NCBI RefSeq assembly: GCF_051903065.1
Contig: NZ_CP178438.1
Length of the DNA: 64,000 nucleotides
Reading direction: 5' to 3' (one strand)
Source: Escherichia coli
Lineage (GTDB): Bacteria; Pseudomonadota; Gammaproteobacteria; Enterobacterales; Enterobacteriaceae
Positions within the stretch are counted from its first letter, which is position 1. The number at the start of each line of letters is the position of its first letter. The notes under the pieces are model-generated. The model was not told the origin of the DNA, searched no databases, and saw only the letters and a list, made by a program, of their open reading frames with translations. The translations under genes and the position numbers were made by a program. Below are positions 1 through 30,626 of this stretch, piece after piece.

Positions 1-615
1 GATGAGCCGATGGGCGCGCTGGATAAAAAGCTGCGTGACCGGATGCAGCTTGAAGTGGTGGATATTCTGGAGCGCGTCGGTGTGACCTGCGTGATGGTTA
101 CTCACGATCAGGAAGAGGCGATGACCATGGCGGGGCGTATCGCCATTATGAATCGTGGGAAATTTGTCCAGATTGGCGAACCGGAAGAGATCTACGAGCA
201 TCCGACTACCCGCTATAGCGCCGAATTTATTGGCTCGGTTAATGTCTTTGAAGGTGTACTCAAAGAGCGTCAGGAAGATGGTCTGGTGCTTTATTCGCCG
301 GGGCTGGTGCATCCACTGAAAGTCGATGCGGATGCTTCAGTGGTCGATAACGTGCCGGTACACGTAGCGCTGCGTCCGGAAAAAATCATGCTTTGCGAAG
401 AGCCGCCCGCCAATGGTTGTAACTTCGCGGTGGGGGAGGTGATACACATTGCCTATCTCGGCGATCTTTCGGTGTATCACGTTCGTCTGAAAAGTGGGCA
501 GATGATTAGCGCCCAGCTACAAAACGCCCATCGTCATCGTAAAGGGTTACCGACCTGGGGCGACGAAGTGCGTTTGTGCTGGGAAGTGGACAGCTGTGTG
601 GTGCTTACGGTTTAA
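1..615 (+). CDS. potG: Putrescine ABC transporter ATP-binding protein PotG, C-terminal part (5' end lies outside the window)
   Basis: In-frame ORF reaching the window edge; translation matches the PotG C-terminal region; followed by potH and potI. Confidence 0.9.
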   Translation, partial: DEPMGALDKKLRDRMQLEVVDILERVGVTCVMVTHDQEEAMTMAGRIAIMNRGKFVQIGEPEEIYEHPTTRYSAEFIGSVNVFEGVLKERQEDGLVLYSPGLVHPLKVDADASVVDNVPVHVALRPEKIMLCEEPPANGCNFAVGEVIHIAYLGDLSVYHVRLKSGQMISAQLQNAHRHRKGLPTWGDEVRLCWEVDSCVVLTV

Positions 616-624
616 GGAGCAAAG

Positions 625-1578: not shown

Positions 1579-2420
1579 ATAATTTACCGGTAGTTCGTTC
1601 GCCCTGGCGGATTGTGATTTTGCTGCTGGGCTTTACCTTTCTCTACGCGCCAATGCTGATGCTGGTTATCTATTCGTTTAACAGCTCGAAGCTGGTGACG
1701 GTGTGGGCCGGCTGGTCAACGCGCTGGTATGGCGAATTATTGCGCGATGACGCGATGATGAGTGCGGTTGGTTTAAGTCTGACAATTGCGGCCTGTGCGG
1801 CGACGGCGGCGGCGATCCTCGGAACTATTGCGGCGGTGGTGCTGGTGCGCTTTGGCAGGTTTCGCGGATCAAATGGCTTTGCCTTTATGATCACCGCGCC
1901 GCTGGTAATGCCAGATGTCATCACGGGCTTGTCGCTGTTGTTATTATTCGTCGCGCTTGCTCATGCCATTGGCTGGCCTGCGGACCGCGGTATGCTTACC
2001 ATCTGGCTGGCGCATGTCACTTTCTGTACGGCTTATGTGGCAGTCGTTATTTCGTCGCGTCTGCGGGAACTGGATCGCTCGATAGAAGAAGCAGCGATGG
2101 ATCTCGGTGCGACGCCGCTGAAAGTGTTTTTCGTCATTACGCTACCGATGATCATGCCCGCGATCATTTCTGGCTGGTTACTGGCTTTTACTTTGTCGCT
2201 TGATGATCTGGTGATCGCCAGCTTTGTTTCCGGGCCGGGAGCCACCACGTTACCGATGCTGGTCTTTTCCAGCGTGCGGATGGGGGTGAATCCGGAAATC
2301 AACGCCCTGGCAACATTGATCCTCGGCGCGGTCGGAATTGTCGGATTTATCGCCTGGTATCTGATGGCTCGCGCAGAAAAACAGCGGATACGCGACATCC
2401 AGCGTGCAAGACGTGGCTGA
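1575..2420 (+). CDS. potI: Putrescine ABC transporter permease PotI
   Basis: Start placed at internal ATG 1575 (MNNLPVV..., 281 aa), overlapping the potH stop; permease-like hydrophobic sequence. Confidence 0.92.
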   Translation: MNNLPVVRSPWRIVILLLGFTFLYAPMLMLVIYSFNSSKLVTVWAGWSTRWYGELLRDDAMMSAVGLSLTIAACAATAAAILGTIAAVVLVRFGRFRGSNGFAFMITAPLVMPDVITGLSLLLLFVALAHAIGWPADRGMLTIWLAHVTFCTAYVAVVISSRLRELDRSIEEAAMDLGATPLKVFFVITLPMIMPAIISGWLLAFTLSLDDLVIASFVSGPGATTLPMLVFSSVRMGVNPEINALATLILGAVGIVGFIAWYLMARAEKQRIRDIQRARRG

Positions 2421-2479
2421 AGACACTAAAATTTGCCAACCTGGCTACATAATGCCGCGTATGTCGCGGCATTGTTTTC

Positions 2480-2968
2480 ATGGAAGACGAAACGTTGGGA
2501 TTTTTTAAGAAAACATCTTCATCTCATGCTCGCCTGAATGTGCCTGCGCTTGTGCAGGTGGCGGCGCTCGCCATTATTATGATCCGTGGCCTCGACGTGC
2601 TGATGATTTTCAATACGCTGGGCGTGCGCGGTATTGGCGAGTTCATTCATCGCAGCGTACAAACCTGGAGTTTAACGCTGGTCTTTTTAAGCAGTCTGGT
2701 GCTGGTTTTCATTGAGATCTGGTGTGCGTTTTCACTGGTGAAAGGGCGTCGCTGGGCGCGCTGGCTGTATCTGCTGACACAAATCACTGCCGCAAGTTAC
2801 TTGTGGGCGGCTTCGCTGGGGTACGGTTATCCGGAGCTGTTCAGCATTCCCGGTGAATCAAAACGTGAAATCTTCCATAGCCTGATGCTGCAGAAGCTGC
2901 CGGATATGCTCATCCTGATGCTGCTGTTCGTTCCCTCGACCAGTCGGCGGTTCTTCCAGTTGCAATAA
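2480..2968 (+). CDS. ybjO: Inner-membrane protein YbjO
   Basis: 162-aa hydrophobic ORF at the conserved position after potI. Confidence 0.85.
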   Translation: MEDETLGFFKKTSSSHARLNVPALVQVAALAIIMIRGLDVLMIFNTLGVRGIGEFIHRSVQTWSLTLVFLSSLVLVFIEIWCAFSLVKGRRWARWLYLLTQITAASYLWAASLGYGYPELFSIPGESKREIFHSLMLQKLPDMLILMLLFVPSTSRRFFQLQ

Positions 2969-3008
2969 TGTGTATAATCGTCGCCCCTGATGATGTGAAG
3001 GTCAATGT

Positions 3009-4136
3009 ATGCAGTGCGCACTTTACGACGCGGGTCGCTGTCGTTCCTGTCAGTGGATAACGCAGCCGATTCCAGAGCAACTCTCCGCTAAAACCGCCGA
3101 TCTTAAAAATCTGCTCGCCGACTTTCCGGTTGAGGAATGGTGCGCGCCGGTGTCAGGCCCGGAACAAGGGTTTCGTAATAAAGCCAAAATGGTGGTGAGT
3201 GGTAGCGTTGAAAAACCACTGCTCGGTATGCTGCATCGCGACGGCACACCGGAAGACCTTTGTGACTGCCCGCTTTATCCTGCCTCATTTGCGCCCGTTT
3301 TTGCGGCGCTAAAACCGTTTATCGCCCGAGCGGGGTTAACGCCCTACAACGTGGCGCGTAAGCGTGGCGAACTGAAATACATTCTGCTGACTGAAAGCCA
3401 GAGCGATGGCGGCATGATGCTGCGCTTTGTACTGCGTTCTGATACCAAGCTGGCGCAACTGCGTAAGGCGCTGCCGTGGTTACACGAACAACTACCGCAG
3501 CTGAAAGTTATTACCGTCAATATTCAGCCGGTACATATGGCGATTATGGAAGGGGAGACGGAGATCTACCTGACCGAACATCAGGCACTGGCAGAGCGTT
3601 TTAATGACGTACCGCTGTGGATCCGTCCGCAAAGTTTCTTCCAGACTAATCCGGCGGTCGCCAGCCAGCTGTACGCTACCGCGCGCGACTGGGTACGACA
3701 ACTGCCGGTTACACATATGTGGGATCTGTTCTGTGGCGTGGGGGGCTTTGGTTTACACTGCGCGACGCCTGACATGCAGTTAACCGGGATCGAAATTGCG
3801 CCAGAGGCCATTGCCTGTGCAAAGCAGTCAGCCGCTGAACTGGGCTTAACGCGTTTGCAATTTCAGGCGCTGGACTCCACTCAGTTTGCCACCGCTCAGG
3901 GGGAGGTGCCGGAGCTGGTGCTGGTTAACCCGCCGCGCCGCGGCATTGGTAAACCGCTGTGTGATTATCTCTCAACGATGGCACCGCGTTTTATCATCTA
4001 CTCCAGCTGTAACGCCCAAACTATGGCGAAAGATATCCGAGAACTGCCTGGTTATCGCATTGAACGGGTGCAGCTTTTCGATATGTTCCCTCACACCGCG
4101 CATTATGAAGTGTTGACGCTGCTGGTAAAAATTTAA
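3009..4136 (+). CDS. rlmC: 23S rRNA (uracil-C5)-methyltransferase RlmC (RumB)
   Basis: 375-aa ORF with N-terminal Cys cluster ([14 protein letters not shown]) and SAM-methyltransferase motifs ([10 protein letters not shown]). Confidence 0.9.
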
Positions 4137-4190
4137 ATACATCACGGCAGTAAATTTTTCGGCAACAACTATTCACTCAAAATAATAATC

Positions 4191-4226
4191 GTGATCGATC
4201 GATTAATAATAACCGATCGATCACGG
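4191..4226. promoter_or_regulatory. Perfect 12-bp inverted repeat (cgtgatcgatcg / cgatcgatcacg) with 12-bp AT-rich spacer and four GATC sites; candidate operator or rlmC terminator
   Basis: Read directly from the sequence in the rlmC-PTS intergenic region. Confidence 0.4.
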
Positions 4227-4433
4227 TTATATATTGCTCTATTTTTGCAAATCAAATCACAAATAATCAAATAAGATCTTTAATTGAACTGTTTTGATTA
4301 CTACAGTGCACTTACCGAATACATACAGAGGCATTGCTTAGCGAAACACAAAATTTCCTGAGACATTATTAACGTCAGCAGAAGGTTCATGCATTGACAA
4401 CGGAAATGTACGCTTATGGAGGGCGTTCCGACG

Positions 4434-5759
4434 ATGTTTGCCAAATTCATAGATGTTATTCAAACGTTTTTAACTGAACCGGCAATTTTAATTGGTTTGC
4501 TGGTGGGTATTGGTTATGCCCTTGATAAGAAATCGCCAATAAAAATTATTACCGGCATGGTCAGCGCCATGGTGGGATTAATGATGGTGTTATTTGGTGG
4601 TTTCCAGTTTTCCGCAACATTTAAACCGGTAGCAGAAGCCGTAAGTAAAGCCTATGGTGTTCACGGATATTTAATGGATTCCTACGCAATGAAAGCGGCA
4701 ACGCAAATTGCACTGGGGGATAATTTTGGTTATGTCGGGTATGTATTTGTACTGGCGTTTTTTACCAACCTGCTGCTGGTATTATTTGGTCGGTATACTG
4801 GTGCCAAAGGGATATTTTTGACAGGGAATACCGGTGTTTCACATTCTCAGGCGGTATTATGGTTGATTGTCTTTTGGCTGGGTTTTAGCTGGACTACATC
4901 CATTATTATTGCCGGAATATTAACGGGTGTATTCTGGGCGTTCTCCACCACGCTCATTGTTAAGCCCATTGCCAAAGTTACCAAAGATGCCGGTTTTACC
5001 ATTGCTCATAACCAGATGTTGGGATTGTGGTTTTTCTCCAAATTCGCCCATAAATTTGGTGACCCTGAAAAGCACGATGCTGAAAACCTGAAACTTCCCG
5101 GGTGGCTGGCGATTTTTAACCATAACGTAACGGCTATCGCCATTGTGATGACGCTGTTTGTCGGTGGTTTCTTGCTATCAACGGGTATCGATAATGTCCA
5201 GTTAATGGCGAAAGGCAAGCCCTGGTACATCTATATCATCAACCTTGGCTTACAGTTCTCCATGTATATGGTCATTCTGCTGCAGGGTGTGCGCATGATG
5301 GTGGGCGAAATTAACGGTTCGTTTAAAGGCTGGCAAGATCGCTTTATTCCTAACGCTATTCCTGCTGTCGATGTTGCAGCGCTGTTACCTTTTTCACCCA
5401 ATGCCGCAACGTTAGGCTTCGTCTTCTGTACTTTTGGCACCATTTTTTCGATGGGGATATTATTACTGGTTCACAGCCCAATTATGGTATTGCCTGGCTT
5501 TGTACCTCTGTTTTTCTCTGGCGGTCCAATTGGCGTATTAGCAAACCGCATGGGCGGATACCGTTCCGTAATTATCTGTACGTTCTTGCTGGGTATTATT
5601 CAGACCTTCGGTACGGTGTGGGCTATTCCGTTAACCGGGCTTGCTGAAAATGGCGTCGGCTGGACAGGAATATTTGACTGGGCAACCGTATGGCCTGCTA
5701 TTTGTGAAGTTCTGAAATTTATCGCTGCAACATTCCATCTTGGTCCTTACGCGGGTTAA
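4434..5759 (+). CDS. PTS system EIIC component, L-ascorbate (UlaA/SgaT) family
   Basis: Multi-TM ORF with clear similarity to UlaA along its length (e.g. KLPGW, VRMxVGE, PGFxPxFFS motifs); start chosen at MFAKF (ORF track begins 4416). Confidence 0.8.
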   Translation: MFAKFIDVIQTFLTEPAILIGLLVGIGYALDKKSPIKIITGMVSAMVGLMMVLFGGFQFSATFKPVAEAVSKAYGVHGYLMDSYAMKAATQIALGDNFGYVGYVFVLAFFTNLLLVLFGRYTGAKGIFLTGNTGVSHSQAVLWLIVFWLGFSWTTSIIIAGILTGVFWAFSTTLIVKPIAKVTKDAGFTIAHNQMLGLWFFSKFAHKFGDPEKHDAENLKLPGWLAIFNHNVTAIAIVMTLFVGGFLLSTGIDNVQLMAKGKPWYIYIINLGLQFSMYMVILLQGVRMMVGEINGSFKGWQDRFIPNAIPAVDVAALLPFSPNAATLGFVFCTFGTIFSMGILLLVHSPIMVLPGFVPLFFSGGPIGVLANRMGGYRSVIICTFLLGIIQTFGTVWAIPLTGLAENGVGWTGIFDWATVWPAICEVLKFIAATFHLGPYAG

Positions 5760-5780
5760 TTAAATATTAAGGGTTTAAAA

Positions 5781-6101
5781 ATGAAAGATACAATTAATAT
5801 TCTGTTTGTCTGTGGTTACGGTGTAGGCAGTAGCGTTATGTTACAAACGGTCGTTAAAAAAGCGCTGACCAAATATGATTTCAAAGTTGAAATGGAACAT
5901 ACCGCCGCAGGTGAAGTCGGCGGGTTTACCGACTGGGCGGATATTTTTGCTATTTCCAAAAAATTACTCGATGTGGTTAGTCTTGACCCGAAACAAGGGC
6001 AATATTTGATTCCGATAGAGAATATTATGGACGGTGAAACTATTGGTCAGCAAATTTATGAAGTGGTTCAGCAACATTTTCCGCATTTAATTAATCAATA
6101 A
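5781..6101 (+). CDS. PTS system EIIB component (ascorbate/galactitol-type)
   Basis: 106-aa ORF with N-terminal phospho-cysteine loop ILFVCGYGVGSS like UlaB; immediately downstream of the EIIC gene. Confidence 0.8.
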   Translation: MKDTINILFVCGYGVGSSVMLQTVVKKALTKYDFKVEMEHTAAGEVGGFTDWADIFAISKKLLDVVSLDPKQGQYLIPIENIMDGETIGQQIYEVVQQHFPHLINQ

Positions 6102-6112
6102 GGTAGGGCGTA

Positions 6113-7594
6113 ATGAGAGCGATTATTCTACTGTTCGATAGTCTGAATAAACGTTATCTGCCACCTTATGGCGATGCGTTAACCAAAGCGCCTAATTTCC
6201 AACGTCTGGCGGCTCATGCCGCCACCTTTGAAAACAGTTACGTCGGCAGTATGCCGTGTATGCCTGCCCGGCGGGAGTTGCATACCGGGCGATGTAACTT
6301 CCTGCATCGGGAGTGGGGGCCGTTAGAACCGTTTGACGACTCCATGCCGGAGCTGCTTAAAAAGGCGGGGATCTATACCCACCTGATAAGCGATCATTTG
6401 CATTACTGGGAAGATGGCGGCGGGAATTATCATAATCGCTACAGTTCGTGGGAGATTGTGCGCGGACAGGAAGGCGATCACTGGCATGCGAGCGTTGCGC
6501 AACCGCCTATTCCCGAGGTGCTACGGGTGCCGCAAAAGCAGACCGGTGGCGGTGTTTCTGGTCTGTGGCGCCATGACTGGGCAAACCGGGAATATATTCA
6601 GCAGGAAGCGGATTTTCCACAAACCAAAGTGTTTGATGCAGGCTGTACCTTTATCCACAAAAATCACGCGGAAGATAACTGGTTATTGCAGGTCGAAACG
6701 TTTGATCCGCACGAGCCGTTTCACACAACGGAAGAGTATCTTTCCTTGTATGAAGATAACTGGGATGGACCGCATTATGACTGGCCGCGTGGCCGGGTGC
6801 AGGAGAGCGACGAGGCCGTGGAGCACATCCGTTGCCGGTATCGTTCGCTGGTGTCGATGTGCGATCGCAACCTGGGGCGCATTCTCGACCTGATGGATGA
6901 GCACGATCTGTGGCGAGATACCATGCTGATTGTCGGCACTGACCACGGCTTTTTACTCGGTGAGCATGGCTGGTGGGCGAAAAACCAGATGCCTTATTAC
7001 AACGAAGTTGCCAATAATCCGTTGTTTATCTGGGACCCGCGCAGTGGTGTAAAAGGAGAGCGGCGACAGGCACTGGTACAAATGATCGACTGGGCGCCAA
7101 CGTTGTATGACTTTTTTCAACAGCCAGTGCCGCCCGATGTGCAGGGGCAACCGCTGGCGAAAACGGTCAGTCACGATGAACCAGTACGCAGCTCGGCGAT
7201 GTTTGGTGTCTTCAGTGGTCATGTTAACGTAACCGATGGGCGTTTTGTCTATATGCGTGCAGCGCTGCCGGGGCGTGAGGATGATATTGCCAACTACACG
7301 TTGATGTCCTGCAAAATGAACAGCCGCTATCCGGTGGATGAGATGCGGGCTTTATCGCTGGCCCCACCGTTTCGTTTTACCAAAGGGTTACAGGTATTAC
7401 GCATCCCGGCACAGGAAAAATATAAGGGGTTGAATCAGTTTGGTCATTTGCTGTTTGATCTGCAAAACGATCCGCAGCAGCTACATCCGATTCATGATGA
7501 TGTGATTGAGTCCCGGATGATCGCGTTGCTGATTCAGTTGATGAAAGATAATGATGCGCCGCCAGAGCAGTTTCAGCGCCTGGGATTAGCGTAG
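6113..7594 (+). CDS. Cys-type sulfatase-like hydrolase (alkaline phosphatase superfamily), predicted cytoplasmic
   Basis: 493-aa ORF; N-terminal IILLFDSL metal-binding motif and sulfatase signature C-M-P-A-R-R-E-L-H-T-G-R; no signal peptide evident. Confidence 0.75.
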   Translation: MRAIILLFDSLNKRYLPPYGDALTKAPNFQRLAAHAATFENSYVGSMPCMPARRELHTGRCNFLHREWGPLEPFDDSMPELLKKAGIYTHLISDHLHYWEDGGGNYHNRYSSWEIVRGQEGDHWHASVAQPPIPEVLRVPQKQTGGGVSGLWRHDWANREYIQQEADFPQTKVFDAGCTFIHKNHAEDNWLLQVETFDPHEPFHTTEEYLSLYEDNWDGPHYDWPRGRVQESDEAVEHIRCRYRSLVSMCDRNLGRILDLMDEHDLWRDTMLIVGTDHGFLLGEHGWWAKNQMPYYNEVANNPLFIWDPRSGVKGERRQALVQMIDWAPTLYDFFQQPVPPDVQGQPLAKTVSHDEPVRSSAMFGVFSGHVNVTDGRFVYMRAALPGREDDIANYTLMSCKMNSRYPVDEMRALSLAPPFRFTKGLQVLRIPAQEKYKGLNQFGHLLFDLQNDPQQLHPIHDDVIESRMIALLIQLMKDNDAPPEQFQRLGLA

Positions 7595-7603
7595 AGAAGT
7601 GAT

Positions 7604-7637
7604 TTTGCCGGAGTGGGTGTTCGCCCACTCCGGCAAA
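7604..7637. terminator. Bidirectional stem-loop terminator between the sulfatase gene and artJ
   Basis: GC-rich hairpin ttgccggagtggg...cccactccggcaa flanked by T/A runs. Confidence 0.55.
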
Positions 7638-7644
7638 TGAATAA

Positions 7645-8376
7645 TTATTGCGGGAACCACTGATCGCTGATTTTCTGATATGTACCGTCAGCTTTAATTG
7701 CTGCCAGCGCGTTATTCAGTTTTTCCAGCAGAGCTTTGTTATCCGGACGTACAGCGATACCCAGGCCGGTGCCGAAGTATTGCGGATCGGTCACTTTTTC
7801 AGTAGCAACGCCCAGTTGCGGATTGGTTTTCAGCCATTCATTAACCACCGCAGTGTCACCAAATACGCCATCAATACGGCCATTTTTCAGATCGATAAAG
7901 GCATTTTGATAACTGTCATAGGAGACCGTTTTCACTTCCGGGTGCTGATCCTGAATATATTTCTGGTGCGTGGTGCCGTTTTCCATCCCAATACGTTTGC
8001 CTTTCAGATCGGCAAACGTTTTGTAGGTATCTTTTTTGGCAATCACGACGGCTGAGTTTTCATAGTAGGGCGTGGTAAACGATACCTGTTTGCTACGCTC
8101 CGGGGTGATATCCATACCGGAGATTACGGCGTCATATTTTCTGAATTTCAGTGACGGGATCAGGCTGTCGAACGCGTGATTAGTAAAAGTACATTCTGCC
8201 TGCATCTGTTTGCATAACGCTTTTGCCAGGTCGATATCAAAGCCGACGATCTGGTTATTGGCATCCATCGACTCGAACGGCGGATAGGTCGCTGATACGC
8301 CAAAATTGATTTTCTCTGCGGCAGAAGCGCCGAACGCACAGGATGCCAGTAATGCGGCAAGAACTAACTTTTTCAT
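7645..8376 (-). CDS. artJ: Arginine ABC transporter periplasmic binding protein ArtJ
   Basis: 243 aa from MKKLVLAALL (signal peptide); periplasmic binding protein sequence; paralog of artI at 10058-10789. Confidence 0.9.
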   Translation of the reverse strand: MKKLVLAALLASCAFGASAAEKINFGVSATYPPFESMDANNQIVGFDIDLAKALCKQMQAECTFTNHAFDSLIPSLKFRKYDAVISGMDITPERSKQVSFTTPYYENSAVVIAKKDTYKTFADLKGKRIGMENGTTHQKYIQDQHPEVKTVSYDSYQNAFIDLKNGRIDGVFGDTAVVNEWLKTNPQLGVATEKVTDPQYFGTGLGIAVRPDNKALLEKLNNALAAIKADGTYQKISDQWFPQ

Positions 8377-8490
8377 GATGGAACTCCCGTCTGTCAATCT
8401 TATGATTATTGGCCGTGTCTGCGGCATGGGATAACAATGCCATCAAGTGAATTTATATGCAATAAATATGATTAAATAATTTGAATGAAA

Positions 8491-8530
8491 TAAAAAAAGA
8501 CGGACAACTTAGTGAGTTGTCCGTCTTTAT
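8491..8530 (-). terminator. Rho-independent terminator downstream of the artPIQM operon
   Basis: Hairpin agacggacaactt...agttgtccgtct followed by a T-run on the minus strand. Confidence 0.6.
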
Positions 8531-8544
8531 TATAAGAATTTATG

Positions 8545-8640
8545 CACTATGTAGGCCGGATAAGGCGTCCACGCCGCATCCGGCACAGGCACCGTGCTGA
8601 TGTCTGATGCGACGCTGGCGCGTCTTATCAGACCTACAAA
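8545..8640. repeat. REP (repetitive extragenic palindromic) element pair
   Basis: Two inverted copies of the gccggataaggcg...cgcatccggca type sequence typical of E. coli REP/BIME. Confidence 0.75.
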
Positions 8641-8666
8641 ACCCCCGGCGAATGTACGCAGCCACA

Positions 8667-9335
8667 TTAATTCCTTCGCTCAAACGCCAGCGCTTTGCGC
8701 TCGATCAGACGCATCATCAGCGTCAGCAGGCCGTTAACGATCAGGTAAATAATCCCCGCCGCGCCAAATACCATCACATCGTAGGTGCGCCCGTACAACA
8801 ACTGGCTGTAACCCATCACTTCCATCAGCGTAATGGTGTAAGCCAGAGAGGTACTTTTGAACACCAGCACCACTTCGTTGGAATAAGAAGAGAGTGAGCG
8901 TTTAAAGGCATACGGCAGCAGGATCGCCAGCGTATCTTTTTTACTCATTCCCAGAGCGCTACAGGATTGCCATTGACCTTCCGGGATCGCACGAATCGCA
9001 CCGTAAAACAGCTGCGTGGTGTACGCCGCACTGTTCAGCGATAACGCAATCAATGCACATAACCACGGTTCTGACAACAAATGCCACAGTGCCGGATACT
9101 CCTGCAACGTCGGGAACTGGCCCGGCCCGTAGTAAATCAGGAAGATCTGCACCAGCAGCGGCGTACCGGTAAACAGCGTGATATAACCCCGCACCAGCCA
9201 CACCAGCACCGGCGTTTTCAGCGTCAGGATGATGGTAAAAATCAATGCCAGAATCAGTGCCACAATCAGCGAGGCAACGGTTAGCGTCAGGCTGGTGTGC
9301 AGCCCTTTCATCAGTTCGGGTAAATACTCAAACAT
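8667..9335 (-). CDS. artM: Arginine ABC transporter permease ArtM
   Basis: 222-aa permease ORF; operon synteny. Confidence 0.9.
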   Translation of the reverse strand: MFEYLPELMKGLHTSLTLTVASLIVALILALIFTIILTLKTPVLVWLVRGYITLFTGTPLLVQIFLIYYGPGQFPTLQEYPALWHLLSEPWLCALIALSLNSAAYTTQLFYGAIRAIPEGQWQSCSALGMSKKDTLAILLPYAFKRSLSSYSNEVVLVFKSTSLAYTITLMEVMGYSQLLYGRTYDVMVFGAAGIIYLIVNGLLTLMMRLIERKALAFERRN

Positions 9336-10051
9336 TAGCTGGGCCTCCGCTCAAAACGTGTCGCGCGCAGGTCAATGCGTTTGAGAATGTACTGACTGAG
9401 CAGGGTGATCACCAGGTAAATCGCCGCCGCCACAATGTACCAGGTAAATGGTTCCTGGGTACGAGTAGCGATGCTTTTGGTTTGCAGCATTAAATCATTC
9501 ACACTAATCAAACTGACCAGCGCGGTATCTTTCAGCAGCACCAGCCACTGGTTACCGAGGCCAGGCAGCGCATGACGCCACATCTGCGGCATCACCAGAC
9601 GGAAAAAGATAGCCGATTTCGACAGCCCCAGCGCCTGACCGGATTCCCACTGGCCCACCGGTACCGCTTTCAACGCGCCGCGCAGCGTTTGCGAGGCATA
9701 GGCGGCATACAGCAGTGACAGAGCGATGACACCACAAAGGAATGGACTCACGTCGAAGTTCTCAATGTCCATCTGCACCGGGATCTGCACGAACCCAAGA
9801 TTGATAGTGAAGCCATCCGAAAGCGTCAGCAGCAGCTGCGAGGAACCAAAATAGATAAACAGCACCACCAGAATTTCTGGCAGGCCACGCAGAATGGTTA
9901 CCAGCGCTGAACCTGCCCACGCGACAGGACGCCATTTTGCCGACTCCCATACCGCAAAGAACATCGCCAGCGCCAGCCCGACAATCAATGCACAAACGGC
10001 AAGGCCGACGGTCATCCCGGCGGCGCTTGCTAAAGGAAAAAATTCATTCAT
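9335..10051 (-). CDS. artQ: Arginine ABC transporter permease ArtQ
   Basis: 238-aa permease ORF; operon synteny. Confidence 0.9.
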
Positions 10052-10057
10052 CAGGAA

Positions 10058-24269: not shown

Positions 24270-25169
24270 TTACGCAGAGAAAAAGGCGATGAGGATCGGC
24301 ACTAACAGGCTAAGAATAAAACCGTGAACAATTGCCGCCGGGACCATATCCAGCCCGCCAGTACGTTGAAGAACGGGCAGGGTGAAATCCATCGACGTCG
24401 CACCGCATAAGCCCAGTGCGGTAGAGCGGCTGCGGCGAATCAGCCCAGGGATCAACATAATTGCAATCAGCTCACGGGCCAGATCATTAAAAAACGCCGC
24501 GCTCCCGATTACCGGACCAAAAGATTCGGTCAATAAAATACCGGAAAGAGAATACCAGCCGAAACCAGAGGCCATTGCCAGCGCGGTATTGATGGGTAGA
24601 TCAAGAATAAAGGCGTTAATTAAACCACCAATTAATGAACTGGCAACCACCACCACGGCGACAATCATTCCCCGGCGATTAAGGACAATCTGCTTTAAGG
24701 TCATGCCATTATTGCGCAACTGAATACCGACGAGGAAAAGTAGCAGAATTAAGGTGTATTCACTGGCTTCGGTCGCGTGTTGTAAGAAAGCCAGTCCACT
24801 CAGGCCAATGGCAAAACCAATCACTACTACGCCGCACAGTTTTAGCGACTCAAGCGCCATCGCAATACGCGACGGGAGTTTTTCTTGCTGATGGTGGTTG
24901 CGCCACGGCAGACCGCGCTCCAGCCACATAAGGGCGGCAATATTACACAGTAAAATAACGGTAATACTGACGGCAGAATAATGCAGAATCGCCAACAGGT
25001 TACTGGCGAGGTTATCGAGAAACGCCAGACTGATACCCATAAAAAAGAGAATAAGGTAAACCATCCAGCTTAATAGCTGATTAATAACTCTTAATGCAGC
25101 TTTTTGGCGAAGCGGAATGAGGTAACCCACAATCAGGGGAACCAGAATGATTAACAGCCCAGAAAACAT
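24270..25169 (-). CDS. ybjE: Lysine exporter LysO (YbjE)
   Basis: 299-aa multi-TM ORF. Confidence 0.85.
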   Translation of the reverse strand: MFSGLLIILVPLIVGYLIPLRQKAALRVINQLLSWMVYLILFFMGISLAFLDNLASNLLAILHYSAVSITVILLCNIAALMWLERGLPWRNHHQQEKLPSRIAMALESLKLCGVVVIGFAIGLSGLAFLQHATEASEYTLILLLFLVGIQLRNNGMTLKQIVLNRRGMIVAVVVVASSLIGGLINAFILDLPINTALAMASGFGWYSLSGILLTESFGPVIGSAAFFNDLARELIAIMLIPGLIRRSRSTALGLCGATSMDFTLPVLQRTGGLDMVPAAIVHGFILSLLVPILIAFFSA

Positions 25170-25627
25170 GAAAACCCAGCCCTTGCAAAGAAAGAAGTCG
25201 AAATGCGCGATGACACACTACTGAAAGCGGAAGGACGAGTAAAGTTGCAATTAAAAGGAAATGTTATGCATCAGAGGGGGATTTTTAATTCTATATGAGT
25301 GTTTAGCATTGTTGCGCTCCTTTCATGTGCAATGCCATATAAAGCCACTGGCGCAGGGAGCGCGCAGGGGGCGGCCAGTCGCCGCCGCCCCCTGCCCCCC
25401 CCGGGCTCTGGCGAAAAAAATCGCCGCTGCGCGGTACCTTCAGCTTATCCCCTTCTGCTACCGGGTCGGGCGCGAGGTAACGTCCTGTAAGACGCGCCCT
25501 CAGCCCACATCCATGTGGGCTGCCCCGGCCTTCGGGGAACGCTTCAGCGATTTTGACGCCACCAACACCCGTGCGGTTTGTAACGTCGAAGATAAAACAA
25601 CCAGGGCAGATAAAATGCCAATGCTAA

Positions 25628-26323
25628 TTAATTACGTTTTTCCAGCAGGGTCCGGTAAATCAGACCACCGATAATGCCGCCGACAATTGGCACCACCCAG
25701 AAGAACCACAGTTGTTCTAATGCCCAGCCGCCCTGGAAGATGGCAACCGCGGTGCTGCGCGCCGGGTTAACAGAAGTGTTAGTCACCGGAATACTGATTA
25801 AGTGAATCAGGGTTAAGGCCAGACCAATAGCGATCGGCGCAAAACCTGCCGGAGCGAATTTGTCGGTTGCGCCGTGGATCACCAACAGGAAACCTGCACT
25901 CAATACCAGTTCAACTACCAGCGCGGAAAGCATGGAATAACCGCCTGGTGAATGCTCGCCATAACCGTTAGAAGCAAAACCGCTGGCTGCCGCGTCAAAA
26001 CCCGTTTTACCACTGGCAATTAAATACAGCAGCGCCGCTGCAACAATACCGCCGACAACCTGGGCAATTACGTAGCCAACGACTTCTTTTGCCGGAAAAC
26101 GTCCGCCAGCCCATAAACCAATAGTGACCGCCGGGTTAAAATGACCACCAGAAATATGACCAACAGCGAAGGCCATCGTCAGAACGGTCAAACCGAATGC
26201 CAGCGCCACGCCGGCAAAACCAATGCCTAATTCCGGGAAGCCTGCGGCCAGTACAGCACTACCACAGCCACCAAAAACAAGCCAGAAAGTACCAAAACAT
26301 TCAGCTGCTAATTTTCTGAACAT
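25628..26323 (-). CDS. aqpZ: Aquaporin Z
   Basis: 231 aa from [12 protein letters not shown]; two NPA motifs (HFNPAVT, NPARS). Confidence 0.93.
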
Positions 26324-26748
26324 ATCCACCTCAATTAAAAATTGACCCTGTGAAAAATATGGTCGTTTTATAGGGTCGTCGTAAAAAAGTGACGACGGAA
26401 ATAATGCGCGGCTATTTTAAAAACGAAGGCGAGTCATTCACCAGATAAATAAATCCAGTAAATTTGATTTAGGGCAACAGCGGGTTGCCCCATATAGTCA
26501 TTTGTCTGATTGACAGTGTAGTGCAAGCAAAAGATTTAATCCTTTAGGCGTAATAAAAAATAATTTATCATGCTAATTATTTGATTTTGTTGTTTTTGCA
26601 GACTTATCAGCAAGAGGGAGTATAACGCGATTATTCGCTCATTTTTCAGACATTTGCCATGCTTAAATGTGATGTCATCACGTATTAGCAAGGCCTTTCC
26701 CGTTATACTGCCAGCGTAAAGGATAAGTCACATATTTCTGGAGGGGAT

Positions 26749-28407
26749 ATGATTCTTGAGCGCGTTGAAATTGTGGGTTTTCGCGGTATCAACCGTTTGT
26801 CGTTGATGCTGGAACAAAACAACGTCCTGATTGGGGAGAACGCGTGGGGTAAATCCAGCTTGCTGGACGCCTTAACCCTGCTGCTATCGCCAGAATCAGA
26901 TCTCTACCATTTTGAGCGCGACGATTTCTGGTTCCCGCCGGGAGATATCAACGGGCGAGAACATCATCTGCATATTATTTTGACCTTCCGCGAATCGCTG
27001 CCAGGCCGACATCGGGTTCGCCGTTATCGGCCGCTGGAAGCGTGCTGGACGCCATGCACCGATGGCTATCACCGTATTTTTTATCGTCTGGAAGGGGAGA
27101 GTGCGGAAGACGGCAGCGTGATGACACTGCGCAGTTTTCTCGATAAAGACGGACATCCGATTGATGTTGAGGATATTAACGATCAGGCACGCCATCTGGT
27201 GCGTTTAATGCCGGTGCTGCGCTTGCGTGATGCCCGTTTTATGCGCCGTATTCGTAACGGCACAGTGCCAAATGTCCCCAATGTGGAAGTCACCGCGCGC
27301 CAGCTCGATTTCCTCGCCCGTGAGTTGTCCTCACATCCGCAAAATCTCTCTGATGGACAGATTCGTCAGGGACTTTCCGCAATGGTACAGCTGCTTGAGC
27401 ATTATTTCTCTGAGCAGGGGGCCGGACAGGCGCGATATCGTTTAATGCGGCGGCGAGCCAGCAATGAGCAACGAAGCTGGCGCTATCTGGATATCATCAA
27501 CCGGATGATTGACCGACCTGGAGGGCGCTCGTATCGGGTTATTTTGCTCGGCCTGTTTGCTACTTTATTGCAGGCAAAAGGCACATTGCGACTGGATAAA
27601 GACGCCCGTCCATTGTTGCTGATCGAAGATCCAGAAACCCGTTTACACCCCATTATGCTTTCAGTTGCCTGGCATCTGTTGAATCTTTTGCCTTTACAAC
27701 GTATTGCTACCACCAACTCTGGCGAGCTGCTTTCGTTAACTCCAGTGGAACATGTTTGCCGCCTGGTGCGTGAATCTTCTCGTGTTGCCGCCTGGCGTCT
27801 GGGGCCAAGTGGCTTGAGCACCGAAGACAGCCGCCGCATCTCTTTTCACATTCGTTTTAATCGTCCGTCATCGCTGTTTGCTCGCTGCTGGTTGCTGGTG
27901 GAAGGGGAAACGGAAACCTGGGTTATCAATGAACTGGCGCGTCAGTGCGGACATCATTTTGATGCCGAAGGGATCAAGGTCATTGAGTTTGCCCAGTCCG
28001 GGCTAAAGCCACTGGTTAAATTTGCCCGGCGAATGGGGATTGAATGGCATGTACTGGTCGATGGCGATGAAGCAGGGAAGAAATATGCCGCTACGGTACG
28101 CAGCCTGTTGAATAATGATCGGGAAGCCGAACGAGAACATTTAACGGCGTTACCGGCGCTGGATATGGAACATTTTATGTATCGCCAGGGATTTTCCGAT
28201 GTGTTCCACCGCGTGGCGCAAATCCCGGAAAATGTACCGATGAATCTGCGCAAAATTATCTCGAAAGCGATCCATCGCTCTTCCAAACCCGATCTTGCCA
28301 TTGAAGTGGCAATGGAGGCCGGACGTCGTGGTGTGGACTCCGTACCGACGCTGCTGAAAAAAATGTTCTCACGCGTGCTGTGGCTGGCGCGCGGTCGCGC
28401 GGATTAA
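26749..28407 (+). CDS. ybjD: OLD-family ATPase/Toprim nuclease YbjD
   Basis: 552 aa; N-terminal ATPase P-loop-like GENAWGKSS; C-terminal Toprim-like LLVEGETE. Confidence 0.85.
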   Translation: MILERVEIVGFRGINRLSLMLEQNNVLIGENAWGKSSLLDALTLLLSPESDLYHFERDDFWFPPGDINGREHHLHIILTFRESLPGRHRVRRYRPLEACWTPCTDGYHRIFYRLEGESAEDGSVMTLRSFLDKDGHPIDVEDINDQARHLVRLMPVLRLRDARFMRRIRNGTVPNVPNVEVTARQLDFLARELSSHPQNLSDGQIRQGLSAMVQLLEHYFSEQGAGQARYRLMRRRASNEQRSWRYLDIINRMIDRPGGRSYRVILLGLFATLLQAKGTLRLDKDARPLLLIEDPETRLHPIMLSVAWHLLNLLPLQRIATTNSGELLSLTPVEHVCRLVRESSRVAAWRLGPSGLSTEDSRRISFHIRFNRPSSLFARCWLLVEGETETWVINELARQCGHHFDAEGIKVIEFAQSGLKPLVKFARRMGIEWHVLVDGDEAGKKYAATVRSLLNNDREAEREHLTALPALDMEHFMYRQGFSDVFHRVAQIPENVPMNLRKIISKAIHRSSKPDLAIEVAMEAGRRGVDSVPTLLKKMFSRVLWLARGRAD

Positions 28408-29396
28408 CCGCGAAACATCGTGGCCATTTGTGGCTGAATAGCGTCGAGCATCTCATAGCGCCGACGGTATTCAGCCCGTTTTTTACTGGCGATTTCGGCA
28501 ATCTCTTTTCGTGCTATCTGTGCTGGAAGGCGGTAATGGCGTTCAGCATCACATACGCCGCCAACCGACTCCCAGAAAGCGTTGTAATCGGCATGGATCT
28601 TGCCTTCTTTATCGCGATAACGCAGGCTGCGGTAAATATGCGTTTCATTGCTGACGGCAATAATCTGCTCTACCTGCAAACGTTGGGCAAACAGACAGGC
28701 CGCTTCCATCACGAGGCGTTTGGGAAATAGCCCGTGGCAGGCTTTCGTCGCATTCTGGATTTCCTGATGTGGAATTTCCCATTTTGCGCCTTGCAGTCCG
28801 CCAATAAACATCGTTCTTTTCCCCTGATATTCACACAGGGTAAACGTGATCTCTGCCAGAGGAATACCTTCGCTGTTGCGGAACAGGATTGTGCTGTCAC
28901 CTTCTTTATCCATTGAGATCATCATGGTCAGCTCAAGCGTGAACTGCTCGCCGTTTTTGCCTTCCAGCTTCGCCAGTTGCAGCCCGGGGGTATTCAAATA
29001 TAAGCTGAATTCTTCCGCCGACATACATCCGCGGAGTAACGCATAATGGTAACGTAACGCCTCCAGCAATTGCTTACGGCTAAGATTCGCCGCAAGGTAA
29101 GGGCGATGCAGACGTACAGGCAGTCGCGGCTGGCGCGTTAACAACACATTGAGATTAGGCCAGTGGGAAAGTTCGTTCATCCACTCAACGCTTAAACGCG
29201 GCATAATCAACGAGCGCAGCAAAAATTTCTGGCGAAAACTACGGCGATGCCAGAATTTACCCGGCCGACACTGTCCACGTGCCAGACTAAGAAAAAGTGA
29301 CAGGCTGCTGAGAGATTCAGATGGCGTAAAGGTCCGTTCAGTTAGCTGCGACATATTCATGAAATCAATGGTTATACATGACGTCGATTTCACCAT
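28404..29396 (-). CDS. ybjX: DUF535/VirK-family protein YbjX
   Basis: 330-aa ORF convergent with and overlapping the ybjD stop. Confidence 0.8.
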   Translation of the reverse strand: MVKSTSCITIDFMNMSQLTERTFTPSESLSSLSLFLSLARGQCRPGKFWHRRSFRQKFLLRSLIMPRLSVEWMNELSHWPNLNVLLTRQPRLPVRLHRPYLAANLSRKQLLEALRYHYALLRGCMSAEEFSLYLNTPGLQLAKLEGKNGEQFTLELTMMISMDKEGDSTILFRNSEGIPLAEITFTLCEYQGKRTMFIGGLQGAKWEIPHQEIQNATKACHGLFPKRLVMEAACLFAQRLQVEQIIAVSNETHIYRSLRYRDKEGKIHADYNAFWESVGGVCDAERHYRLPAQIARKEIAEIASKKRAEYRRRYEMLDAIQPQMATMFRG

Positions 29397-29510
29397 TGCG
29401 TATCTTAACCAAACATCAATAGTGTGATTACTAACGTAAATTTTAGGGTTTTGTTGATATTTCGTTGAAGTTAATGACCCGGATTGGCATATGGAGTATT
29501 CAGAATATTT

Positions 29511-30626
29511 ATGAAAAAGCGGAAAACCGTGAAGAAGCGTTACGTTATTGCGCTGGTGATAGTCATCGCCGGGCTGATTACGTTATGGAGAATTCTTAAC
29601 GCACCCTTGCCGACTTATCAGACGCTGATTGTGCGCCCCGGTGATTTACAGCAAAGCGTGCTGGCGACCGGAAAGCTGGACGCGCTGCGTAAGGTTGATG
29701 TGGGCGCGCAGGTCAGCGGTCAGTTGAAAACGCTGTCGGTGGCGATTGGCGATAAAGTAAAAAAAGACCAGCTTTTAGGGGTTATTGATCCTGAACAGGC
29801 TGAAAACCAGATCAAGGAGGTCGAAGCAACGCTGATGGAGCTACGCGCGCAGCGGCAGCAGGCGGAAGCGGAGCTGAAACTGGCGCGGGTGACGTATTCC
29901 CGTCAGCAACGTCTGGCACAAACGCAGGCGGTTTCACAGCAGGATCTCGACACCGCCGCGACGGAGATGGCTGTGAAACAGGCGCAAATTGGCACCATTG
30001 ACGCGCAAATCAAGCGCAATCAGGCTTCTCTCGATACGGCTAAAACCAATCTCGATTACACTCGCATCGTTGCCCCGATGGCCGGGGAAGTCACGCAAAT
30101 CACCACTCTGCAAGGCCAGACGGTGATTGCCGCACAACAAGCACCGAACATTCTGACGCTGGCAGATATGAGCACCATGCTGGTAAAAGCGCAGGTTTCT
30201 GAAGCGGATGTAATCCACCTGAAGCCGGGGCAAAAAGCCTGGTTTACGGTACTTGGCGATCCACTGACGCGCTACGAGGGGCAAATCAAGGATGTACTAC
30301 CGACGCCGGAAAAGGTTAACGACGCTATTTTCTATTACGCCCGTTTTGAAGTCCCCAACCCCAATGGTTTGCTGCGGCTGGATATGACTGCGCAAGTGCA
30401 TATTCAGCTCACCGATGTGAAAAATGTGCTGACGATCCCTCTGTCGGCGTTAGGCGATCCGGTTGGCGATAATCGTTATAAAGTCAAATTGTTGCGTAAT
30501 GGTGAAACACGCGAGCGTGAAGTGACGATTGGCGCACGTAACGATACCGATGTTGAGATTGTCAAAGGGCTGGAAGCGGGCGATGAAGTGGTGATTGGTG
30601 AGGCCAAACCAGGAGCTGCACAATGA
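29511..30626 (+). CDS. macA: Macrolide efflux membrane fusion protein MacA
   Basis: 371 aa from [12 protein letters not shown]; coiled-coil membrane-fusion-protein sequence; stop overlaps macB. Confidence 0.92.

Follow-up and report, generated by a model that had tools for sequence, protein, structure and literature searches.

YbjD of Escherichia coli, a solitary and vertically inherited OLD-family ATPase-Toprim protein with GajA-like sequence and a conserved nuclease site

Nucleases of the OLD family are now seen almost wholly as anti-phage effectors, and few genes of this family, ybjD among them, are core genes of the best-studied bacterium. We asked what function this gene may serve, using a stretch of 64,000 nucleotides of E. 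coli contig NZ_CP178438.1 (the window). The gene is already known: it is E. coli ybjD (b0876), which was the OLD family query of Schiltz 2019 (PMC6755086) and whose product was tested experimentally by Atahualpa et al. 2026 (PMC13261556), with oldB as the proposed name. Both papers describe the OLD architecture, a gene that stands alone with aqpZ on one side and the convergent ybjX on the other, and an assignment to Class 1; a literature search under b0876 and DUF2813 returned nothing beyond the ybjD papers cited here. The initial annotation of the window called the cellular role poorly defined, which is partly outdated by the plaque assays and the name given in PMC13261556. Our main reading, to which we give a probability of roughly 0.55, is that YbjD is a solitary, fixed OLD nuclease with a conserved, nuclease-dependent cellular function, for which the ATPase is the probable switch.

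The protein belongs to a cluster 100% identical to E. coli YbjD, it is annotated as ybjD in RefSeq, and its region matches E. coli chromosomes at 100% identity; it is a real gene and a chance open reading frame is excluded. A Shine-Dalgarno sequence (GGAGG) is located at 26740-26744. Pfam assigned residues 1-375 to DUF2813 (2e-160) and residues 376-440 to OLD-like_TOPRIM (PF20469, 3.8e-16), with further P-loop/ABC/SMC N-terminal matches in residues 1-60 (AAA_15, AAA_21, AAA_29, SMC_N). These matches agree with the N-terminal ATPase and C-terminal Toprim that the initial annotation had recognised in the reading frame, and the identity of the gene together with this architecture is practically certain. 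The positions of the features are collected in Table 1.

Table 1. Positions of ybjD, its functional parts and adjacent features in the window.
Feature	Position	Strand	Description or basis
Candidate -10 box TATACT of a ybjD promoter (GCTATACT in most genera)	26704..26709	+	upstream alignment
ybjD (oldB) CDS	26749..28407	+	552 aa, ATG start; OLD-family ATPase-Toprim nuclease
Walker A / P-loop G29-E-N-A-W-G-K35-S36	26833..26856	+	motif and conservation in 48 relatives
ATPase insertion, residues ~61-280 (beta-rich lobe and helical region)	26929..27588	+	conservation, predicted model
ATPase C-lobe: Walker B L290-LIED294, PE296xxLH300P, Q317, H-loop T322-N323-S324	27616..27720	+	conservation counts
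Toprim nuclease and C-terminal helical region, residues 376-552	27874..28404	+	proposed catalytic set
Proposed catalytic E385/E389	27901-27915	+	
Proposed catalytic D438/D440	28060-28068	+	
Proposed catalytic D472/E474	28162-28170	+	
Proposed catalytic S512-K513-P514	28282-28290	+	
TTAA stop-stop overlap of ybjD and ybjX	28404..28407	.	read from sequence; RefSeq coordinates agree
ybjX (VirK/DUF535), convergent	ORF 28404..29396; feature 28404..29360	-	Pfam DUF535 3e-102

To explore how ybjD has been inherited, we compared its locus across genomes. ybjD belongs to the E. coli core genome, occurring in 5424 of 5426 complete genomes, and it is syntenic and vertically inherited in Enterobacterales. 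The best 80 species-representative loci all belong to this order, their identities follow the phylogeny in declining from 99% to 66%, and the gene order lysO-(aqpZ)-ybjD-(ybjX)-macA is conserved across it. The identity of YbjD correlates with that of LysO (rho 0.88), MacA (0.80) and AqpZ (0.75). In addition, the gene is under purifying selection at the level of housekeeping genes: omega is 0.015-0.03, a value reliable for close comparisons only because dS is saturated beyond Citrobacter, and dN is equal to or below that of aqpZ, macA and lysO. Relatives in Vibrionales, Alteromonadales and Aeromonadales lie among housekeeping genes as well; the seven contexts of relatives with 30-53% identity were housekeeping in every case, and none had a helicase called next to the gene. 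No helicase, reverse transcriptase or other conserved partner was found in the 80 Enterobacterales loci and the seven distant contexts, in keeping with the earlier description of a single gene in a conserved chromosomal context without a helicase partner (the neighbours here being lysO and aqpZ on one side and ybjX, macA and macB on the other). The usual hallmarks of defence genes, namely a patchy spread, location in a defence island or mobile element and horizontal transfer, are not displayed by ybjD.

A P2-like prophage had also been noted in the window, and one end of such a Peduovirus prophage (int, C, cox, B) is indeed located at about 60,044-64,000. P2 carries the founding old gene of the family, so ybjD could be regarded as a captured phage old gene related to this prophage. 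The prophage, however, lies 32 kb from ybjD and is missing in NZ_CP083585.1, whose locus is identical in other respects, and a tblastn search of 50,697 phage records revealed only a 2-kb fragment of 91% identity without phage features. The profile match of YbjD to P2 Old is partial, and ybjD is syntenic across a whole bacterial order. Phage capture is effectively refuted by these results and retains next to no probability, and no link between the prophage and ybjD can be demonstrated; in the nearest genome with the same insertion, the old/tin hotspot is filled by other genes. Matches in the plasmid database with at least 40% identity fall in records of 0.6-5.4 Mb, which we read as chromosomes or chromids, and one further match is a 74-kb E. 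coli record in which ybjX is also present. Matches on genuine plasmids are partial, show 25-30% identity and belong to other OLD types.

The overall fold of YbjD resembles that of solved OLD proteins, as claimed in the initial annotation for P2 Old and GajA. A sequence search of the PDB with the single protein was weak (7e-5), and family profile and fold searches were needed. In the profile comparison YbjD aligned end to end with true GajA (E 1e-35), and the match with P2 Old (E 6.7e-13) covered the region from Walker B to the DxD core only; the identity between YbjD and P2 Old was given as 18% by Schiltz 2019 (PMC6755086). The fold search aligned 164 residues to the C-terminal region of the Class 2 protein 6nk8. 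The comparison of OLD classes that had been suggested earlier gives a divided answer: YbjD is Class 1 by gene context, being solitary and without a conserved helicase, reverse transcriptase or nuclease partner, while its sequence and its C-terminal architecture are GajA-like (Class 2-like). We consider the GajA-like placement likely. The structural hallmarks of Ts OLD and P2 Old in Class 1 (no C-terminal helical domain or Insert-3 helix, and a catalytic Arg/Lys some 7 residues past the metal-B Glu) are not shared by YbjD, as judged from the alignments and the predicted model. The similarity to GajA extends over the full length and includes the C-terminal helical region with the catalytic Lys, but the UvrD/PcrA/Rep-like GajB that defines the Class 2 context is absent beside ybjD and its relatives; as a positive control for Gabija detection, a plasmid pair was recognised (GajA 3e-261, GajB 1e-286). 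Class 3 would bring an adjacent reverse transcriptase and a retron ncRNA, and neither a reverse transcriptase neighbour nor an Rfam match was found. The AriA/AriB of PARIS (Class 4) are separate genes, whereas both domains of YbjD reside in one reading frame. On the best PADLOC GajA model YbjD reached 267 bits, compared with 866 bits for a true member, and the 'GajA' label reflects model clustering.

Compared with Gabija GajA (B. cereus 8SM3/8U7I; Burkholderia pseudomallei OLD 6NK8), YbjD lacks GajB, belongs to the chromosomal core rather than to islands or plasmids, and has about 55 fewer residues between DxE and SKP. It differs from P2 Old and Ts OLD (6P74) in having its catalytic basic residue about 40 rather than 7 residues after the metal-B Glu, and its lineage, unlike that of P2 Old, is not phage-borne.

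Analysis of the residues in 48 relatives (28-54% identity) revealed that both domains of the OLD family are represented in YbjD, an ABC-type ATPase at the N-terminus that carries Walker A and Walker B, and a Toprim that carries ExxxE, DxD, a further acidic pair and a Lys/Arg as catalytic residue. The alignment of Toprim catalytic residues proposed in the initial annotation confirmed their conservation, since none of the 48 relatives deviates at E385, E389, D438, D440, D472, E474 or K513, and the Toprim core is the region of YbjD with the highest conservation and the lowest dN. The positions +5 to +8 from the metal-B Glu hold no conserved basic residue (K+R in at most 15 of 48), and the invariant K513 lies a median of 40 residues downstream of that Glu; K513 is a putative active-site residue placed from alignment and spacing, not from measured distances. 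The model of YbjD displays a helix (458-464) before beta4 and four helices at the C-terminus.

In the ATPase, G29 and E30 of Walker A are invariant, and at position 35 the lysine is retained in 43 of the relatives and replaced by R in 4 and by S in 1. The insertion that follows is the least conserved region (mean column identity 0.32, highest dN); the model shows helices at 180-277 and low-confidence loops at 167-178 and 224-242, and this helical part is probably a dimerisation domain by analogy with Ts OLD (PMC7049728) and GajA. In the C-lobe, E293 is found in 44 and H300 in 47 of the 48 relatives, and position 294 is D in 27, E in 15 and N in 4. The H-loop position 323 is N in 34, H in 7 and Y in 4, with Asn in place of His in YbjD. 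We rejected this Asn as a novel feature, because Schiltz 2020 noted it, the H-to-N exchange being common among Class 1 OLDs, and because most relatives share it. Across the 48 relatives the catalytic positions of the ATPase vary more than those of the nuclease.

From these data we propose that YbjD is an ABC-type ATPase, with an inserted and probably dimerising helical domain, fused to a two-metal Toprim nuclease. Metal A would be held by E385, D438 and D440 and metal B by E389, D472 and E474, and the transition state would be stabilised by K513, in the manner of K562 in Burkholderia OLD. The nuclease activity, the substrate and the effect of ATP are inferred by analogy with characterised OLD proteins, and no biochemical data on YbjD were found in the literature searched. 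The ATPase, with its H-loop Asn, would probably act mainly as a nucleotide-binding switch that restrains YbjD. The variation of Walker A, Walker B and H-loop positions across the family speaks for ATP as a switch, and the idea is consistent with the higher toxicity of the K35A mutant (PMC13261556) and with the inhibition of GajA by ATP; we regard the chances of this part of the proposal as even.

The published phenotypes of YbjD come from PMC13261556. Deletion of ybjD, which is non-essential (Keio deletion), left susceptibility to 68 BASEL phages unchanged; induction of YbjD lowered the plaquing of Bas18 and Bas20 and reduced the plaque size of Bas64-68. Thus the plaque assays that the initial annotation had called for gave a weak inhibition of a few BASEL phages on over-expression, and no phage phenotype on deletion. 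The effect was independent of the Toprim acidic residues, persisted in the delta-Toprim form (residues 1-377) and in K35A, and was lost in delta-ATPase. P2 Old killed a recBC(ts) strain and YbjD did not. The retention of the phenotype without Toprim, together with an ATPase fold that is nearest to SMC, Rad50, RecF, PtuA and AriA in the fold search, would suit a protein whose Toprim is vestigial and that acts through its ATPase only, for instance by clamping DNA or as a sensor recruiting another effector. Against this stand the seven invariant catalytic residues, the conservation and low dN of the Toprim core, the greater variation of the ATPase positions and the finding that no split or truncated form is dominant in the family, and we consider a vestigial Toprim improbable.

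The same phenotypes bear on the possibility that YbjD is a nuclease dedicated to anti-phage defence that works on its own, a classical protein of Class 1 like P2 Old or Vibrio cholerae OLD and an old fixed immune gene, which on sensing infection would cut nucleic acid of the phage or the host. Every bacterial OLD protein with a characterised function takes part in phage defence or in conflict between phages, so that priors favour defence, and a location in the core genome is compatible with it. The fold and the best PADLOC matches of YbjD are also to defence proteins, and the plaque effects of induced YbjD fit such a role. The unchanged susceptibility of the deletion strain does not, and the effect of over-expression dispenses with Toprim although the Toprim residues are the most conserved of the family. 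Toxicity is RecBC-independent, in contrast to P2 Old (PMC13261556), and a gene that is core, syntenic, vertical, constrained, outside defence islands and not carried by phages or genuine plasmids is atypical for defence. The same pattern led to a non-defence assignment of Cran1 of Sulfolobales (PMC12796447), which is likewise an OLD gene with order-wide conservation and vertical inheritance and whose phenotype needs the ATPase but not the nuclease; Cran1, however, is archaeal, essential and cell-cycle regulated, whereas ybjD is non-essential and is not known to be linked to the cell cycle, and the parallel is one of evolutionary pattern and domain dependence. V. cholerae OLD (Class 1, PMC12392090), likened here by description, is also a solitary bacterial OLD and RecBCD-independent; a dedicated inhibitor of phage origin acts against it. 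Its defence requires conserved ATP-binding residues, as cited in PMC13261556, whereas the YbjD phenotype reported there tolerates K35A and loss of Toprim. We therefore regard the dedicated defence nuclease as unlikely, though not negligible, and the narrower statement that the primary role of YbjD is something other than classical phage defence as a toss-up.

The selected function of YbjD, in our main reading, would be nuclease-dependent and cellular: surveillance, repair or processing of nucleic acids, or an innate barrier that is constitutive and acts at a low level. The weak anti-phage effect of over-expression, which does not depend on Toprim, is probably something other than the selected function. 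The reported phenotypes are all anti-phage, observed on over-expression and Toprim-independent, and they neither support nor identify a nuclease-dependent role. For temperature stress in Salmonella, Schiltz 2020 cites Khatiwara 2012, and ybjD (STM0939) is a candidate for the gene meant.

A more specific and tentative version, to which we give distinctly less than even chances, is that YbjD/DUF2813 is a domesticated, GajA-derived OLD nuclease that lost its helicase, became fixed in the ancestor of Enterobacterales and related gammaproteobacterial orders and performs nuclease-dependent housekeeping on host nucleic acid. Its tasks may include RNA processing or decay, or the repair of a specific DNA lesion under stress. 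If this is true, YbjD would be the bacterial counterpart of archaeal Cran1 and the anti-phage effect of over-expression would be incidental. The ybjD lineage fits the anti-phage view of OLD nucleases poorly because of its order-wide vertical inheritance, housekeeping constraint and invariant nuclease site, and a cellular substrate for the conserved nuclease would make it an example of a domesticated immune-type module and take one gene off the E. coli y-ome. Unless more evidence is obtained, neither defence-annotation pipelines nor readers should take ybjD for a remnant of Gabija or for a defence gene of the P2-Old type. To the publications on this gene our analysis adds the statistics on core-gene status and vertical inheritance, the finding that ybjX is dispensable across genera, the resemblance of the C-terminal architecture to GajA and the contrast between invariant Toprim residues and variable ATPase motifs.

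The overlap of the ybjD stop with the convergent VirK-like ybjX, also pointed out in the initial annotation, amounts to 4 nt shared by the two coding sequences, the convergent gene being labelled 'VirK/YbjX family protein' in RefSeq. The two genes could form a functional module in which the overlap reflects coupled function or essential mutual antisense control: they abut within 31 nt in 48 of the 56 loci that carry both, and ybjD-ybjX appears as a convergent excludon in an RNA-seq list (PMC12288877). Among the 78 Enterobacterales loci with enough downstream sequence, however, ybjX is convergent downstream of ybjD in 56 and missing in 22, and the genera without ybjX and with an intact ybjD include Klebsiella, Raoultella, Pectobacterium, Brenneria and Mangrovibacter. 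When E. coli is compared with Citrobacter, the dN of ybjX is about sixfold that of ybjD (0.344 vs 0.056), with identities of 57% for YbjX and 91% for YbjD, the co-divergence of the two proteins is weak (rho 0.45), and distant DUF2813 genes have neighbours unrelated to those of E. coli ybjD. Judged from its absence in these loci and its roughly six times faster evolution, ybjX is not an obligate partner of ybjD, and a functional module is very improbable. Where the two genes coexist, antisense interference may modulate their expression.

Around ybjD, a generic sigma-70 promoter scan gave nothing above the shuffled expectation, including at the candidate -10 box, and a scan for a terminator between the convergent genes found none. 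SOS regulation was rejected, as neither CTG-N10-CAG nor CTGT-N8-ACAG (up to one mismatch) occurs in the 419-bp aqpZ-ybjD intergenic region, and positions 25000-30000 had no Rfam match at E <=0.1. When the upstream regions from 12 genera were aligned, the candidate -10 box was the sole strongly conserved block.

By megablast the window belongs to the E. coli chromosome; several genomes match its aqpZ-ybjD-ybjX segment at 100% identity and annotate it as 'ybjD: ATP-dependent endonuclease' and 'ybjX: VirK/YbjX family protein'. The 552-aa reading frame described for ybjD was borne out exactly, including its ATG start, and Pfam comparison placed DUF2813 in residues 1-375 (2e-160), the OLD-like Toprim domain PF20469 in residues 376-440 (4e-16) and P-loop, ABC and SMC-type matches in residues 1-60. 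The convergent downstream frame, reported as VirK-like, encodes a DUF535/VirK protein (3e-102), and the stop codons of the two genes interlock as had been claimed. The initial annotation was accurate and its interpretation of ybjD is supported, for a gene that is already described.

Features of the window and of the comparison loci (L-numbers), each in its own coordinates
Feature	Position	Strand	Details
ybjD	26749-28407	+
Ribosome-binding site	26740-26744		GGAGG, upstream of ybjD
Candidate -10-like box GCTATACT	26704-26709		gTTATACT in E. coli, ~40 nt before the ybjD ATG; also at aligned positions in L005-L080
TTAA common to both CDSs	28404-28407		ybjD/ybjX overlap
PTS EIIC-GAT permease and sulfatase	4416-7594	+	accessory, lower-GC; between rlmC-like methyltransferase and artJ
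Pentapeptide-repeat ORF	12892-14694	+	intact, 600 aa, between ybjP and ybjQ; low-GC stretch (33-39%)
P2-like (Peduovirus) prophage, left end	60044-64000		beside pflA; integrase, C, Cox, B, DUF5405 genes
Kluyvera ybjD-ybjX interval (L042, L043, L047)	~9660-10800		~1.1 kb between the genes; tight convergent abutment lost
Gabija comparator locus (L093)	1-10705		NZ_CP081743.1, E. coli IncF/IncN multi-replicon plasmid; complete, GajA 607 aa and GajB 631 aa; adjoins umuDC, integrase and DUF6602 gene
Giant DUF2813-family gene (L090)	6001-9567

YbjD (b0876) was the KEGG query defining the OLD family, with E. coli put in Class 1, the solitary genes (Schiltz 2019, PMC6755086). A 2026 micropublication devoted to ybjD, whose authors propose the name oldB, aligned the protein with characterised OLDs, noted the aqpZ/ybjX context and showed expression of the gene (PMC13261556). 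In that work the Keio ybjD deletion left susceptibility to 68 BASEL phages unchanged, and with mild arabinose induction of YbjD, Bas18 and Bas20 plaqued less well and Bas64-68 formed smaller plaques. These over-expression effects needed the ATPase domain but neither the Toprim domain nor the acidic residues within it; K35A YbjD kept the phenotype with higher toxicity, and YbjD lacked the killing of a recBC(ts) host that P2 Old shows. The ybjD-ybjX pair is also listed among convergent transcript overlaps (ExcludonFinder, PMC12288877), so that the checks proposed in the initial annotation have largely been done by others.

Of 5426 complete E. coli genomes, 5424 carry the ybjD locus, each in a single copy, and the Salmonella and Citrobacter proteins share ~90% identity with YbjD. 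Scanning a single genome for each species gave at least 496 relatives, of which the best 80, the ones examined, are all from Enterobacterales. Among these 80 loci YbjD identity falls with phylogenetic distance, from 97-99% in Escherichia to ~91% in Citrobacter, ~85% in Klebsiella and Enterobacter, ~80% in Buttiauxella and Cedecea, 75% in Mangrovibacter and 66-68% in Serratia, Pectobacterium and Brenneria. It co-varies with the identity of LysO (rho 0.88), MacA (0.80) and AqpZ (0.75), and the gene order lysO-(aqpZ)-ybjD-(ybjX)-macA is kept across Enterobacterales loci. Omega for ybjD (Nei-Gojobori) was 0.015 vs E. albertii and 0.029 vs Citrobacter; dN to Citrobacter was 0.056 for the whole gene, 0.033 for the Toprim and C-terminus and 0.077 for the ATPase insertion (61-280), with values of 0.055 for aqpZ, 0.075 for macA and 0.076 for lysO.

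A tblastn search of 50,697 phage records revealed no YbjD-type gene except one 2-kb fragment, which looks like host DNA. Plasmid-database matches of at least 40% identity lay on records of 0.6-5.4 Mb (Proteus 56%; Vibrio, Salinivibrio and Photobacterium 40-43%), which we read as chromosomes or chromids, with the exception of a 74-kb E. coli record carrying a ybjD-type match and ybjX; the remaining matches on plasmid-sized records were partial, 25-30% identical, and to other OLD types. The wider lineage comprises 335 clusters at the 50% identity level (E 1e-30 or better), with Vibrio, Motilimonas and Anaerobiospirillum among its named members, and all seven contexts sampled for relatives of 30-53% identity were housekeeping neighbourhoods, for example between ribH-nusB-thiL-pgpA and dxs-ispA-xseB or between cysS and nrdBA. 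No helicase was called beside the relative in these seven contexts, in which some contigs are short and some neighbours have no Pfam record. The main rival reading, a dedicated defence role for YbjD, would accommodate the plaque phenotypes seen on induction; against it, the distribution, synteny, selection and mobility pattern of ybjD is that of a core gene under vertical inheritance and differs from that of a typical defence gene. This evidence for core, vertical inheritance is an addition to the published work, and Yang et al. reasoned likewise in assigning a non-defence role to the archaeal Cran1 (PMC12796447).

We also observed giant DUF2813-family proteins of 1046-1867 aa (P0149, P0162, P0165, P0175 and P0196; that of Anaerobiospirillum has 1187 aa), with a big ATPase insertion and, past the Toprim domain, C-terminal extensions of several hundred to ~1,100 aa, in which no Pfam match was found.

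The convergent ybjX, a PhoP-regulated gene, closely abuts ybjD in 56 of the 78 loci with sufficient downstream sequence (gap of at most 31 nt in 48 of these 56) and is absent beside an intact ybjD in the other 22, the genera without it including Klebsiella, Raoultella, Superficieibacter, Pectobacterium, Brenneria and Mangrovibacter. The YbjX proteins of E. coli and Citrobacter share only ~57% identity (dN 0.344). Consequently, ybjX is not an obligate partner of ybjD and the overlap does not define a system; where both genes exist, antisense interference via the overlap may occur. We found no terminator between the two genes, no LexA-like box upstream of ybjD and no Rfam elements around it. Alignment of the upstream regions of 12 genera revealed one well-conserved block, GCTATACT, in an otherwise divergent intergenic region, a candidate resembling a sigma-S-type -10 element. 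A cathelicidin-derived peptide raised ybjD mRNA in UPEC UTI89 along with arn and mar/evg genes (1.31 for ybjD in the published expression table; PMC6737244); the ybjD signal could be antisense read-through if the library was unstranded.

YbjD is a Class 1 OLD by context, and its sequence and architecture bring it nearer to Class 2. For the family profile A1 (48 sequences, 28-54% identity), alignment with the GajA of an IncF plasmid from E. coli ran end to end (E 1.4e-35, 530 columns), D472-x-E474 facing 'DFE' and S512-K513-P514 facing 'SKP', although GajA has ~55 extra residues between these motifs; with P2 Old the alignment was limited to the Walker B-DxD core (E 6.7e-13, 190 columns). The comparator was checked as a true Gabija in PADLOC (GajA 3e-261; GajB 1e-286, two bases downstream). 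The best PADLOC models for YbjD were all labelled GajA (7e-80, 8e-41, 7e-38 and further), and the alignment of the Old model (2e-24) ends at residue 473. YbjD reaches only 267 bits on its best GajA model vs 700-870 bits for true members of these models, which indicates a separate lineage.

The classes are structurally distinguished by an Insert-3 helix and by a helical domain at the C-terminus, both missing from Ts OLD (Schiltz 2020, PMC7049728). According to the same work, the catalytic Arg/Lys follows the metal-B Glu by 7 residues in the Class 1 proteins Ts OLD (E480, R487) and P2 Old (E543, K550) and by 54 residues, placing it in the helical domain, in the Class 2 Bp OLD (E508, K562). In the YbjD family the putative catalytic K513 follows E474 by a median of 40 residues, and no conserved basic residue occurs at +5 to +8 after E474 (at most 15 of 48 relatives). 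In the YbjD model a predicted helix (458-464) separates alpha3 from beta4 and four C-terminal helices follow, and we infer that K513 lies at the active site. This GajA-like placement, which the published work on this solitary OLD does not contain, agrees with the nesting of Class 2 within Class 1 diversity (Cran1 paper, PMC12796447) and may explain why DefenseFinder places Class 1 OLDs in just 0.45% of genomes (PMC12392090) despite ybjD being core to a heavily sequenced order.

The Toprim catalytic residues, on whose conservation the initial annotation had staked its reading, are clearly conserved, being invariant across the 48 relatives, whose invariant columns are concentrated in the Toprim domain (E385, G386, E387, E389, D438, G439, D440, D472, E474 and K513-P514). 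Mean conservation is highest in the Toprim core (0.72), followed by the ATPase N-lobe (0.55) and the insertion (0.32), and the ATPase catalytic positions are more variable than those of the Toprim: Walker A Lys (K 43, R 4, S 1), Walker B Asp (D 27, E 15, N 4) and H-loop residue (N 34, H 7, Y 4). The most tightly conserved part of the protein is yet irrelevant to the only phenotypes seen (PMC13261556), and this tension is most simply read as selection for a YbjD function other than the over-expression phenotype. Our data add to the published work a nuclease site under strong selection for a function not yet observed. Most likely, YbjD has a conserved cellular, nuclease-dependent function, which may double as low-level innate surveillance; that it is a domesticated housekeeping OLD nuclease is a tentative proposal, to which we give a probability of roughly 0.35. 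An old gene conditionally essential under temperature stress in a Salmonella transposon screen, as cited by Schiltz 2020, hints at a phage-independent phenotype for a putative ybjD equivalent, and YbjD protein was detected in Salmonella proteomics.

With the domain organisation, catalytic motif set, solitary core-gene status and GajA-like architecture established, YbjD would act as a two-metal Toprim nuclease, in which E385, D438 and D440 may bind metal A and E389, D472 and E474 metal B, with K513 as possible general acid or transition-state stabiliser. The helical insertion would mediate oligomer formation. Nucleotide binding by the ABC ATPase may restrain YbjD, as suggested by the hyper-toxicity of K35A (PMC13261556), the ATP inhibition of GajA in the literature and the H-loop Asn; in Ts OLD the H-loop change H310A loses hydrolysis (Schiltz 2020).

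Elsewhere in the window, the remark on a P2-like prophage was confirmed: between ~60,044 and the end of the window, identity to int-C-cox-B regions of Peduovirus is 94-98%. Genome NZ_CP083585.1, identical in other respects, is without this prophage beside pflA, and its pentapeptide-repeat region is a partial pseudogene per PGAP; in the window this segment is probably a horizontally acquired insertion. The gene order around the PTS permease and sulfatase presumably differs from K-12. In NZ_CM144242.1, the nearest genome with this prophage insertion, the old/tin hotspot holds DUF3850 and hypothetical genes and lacks an annotated old gene, and a second P2-like prophage adjoins dmsA.
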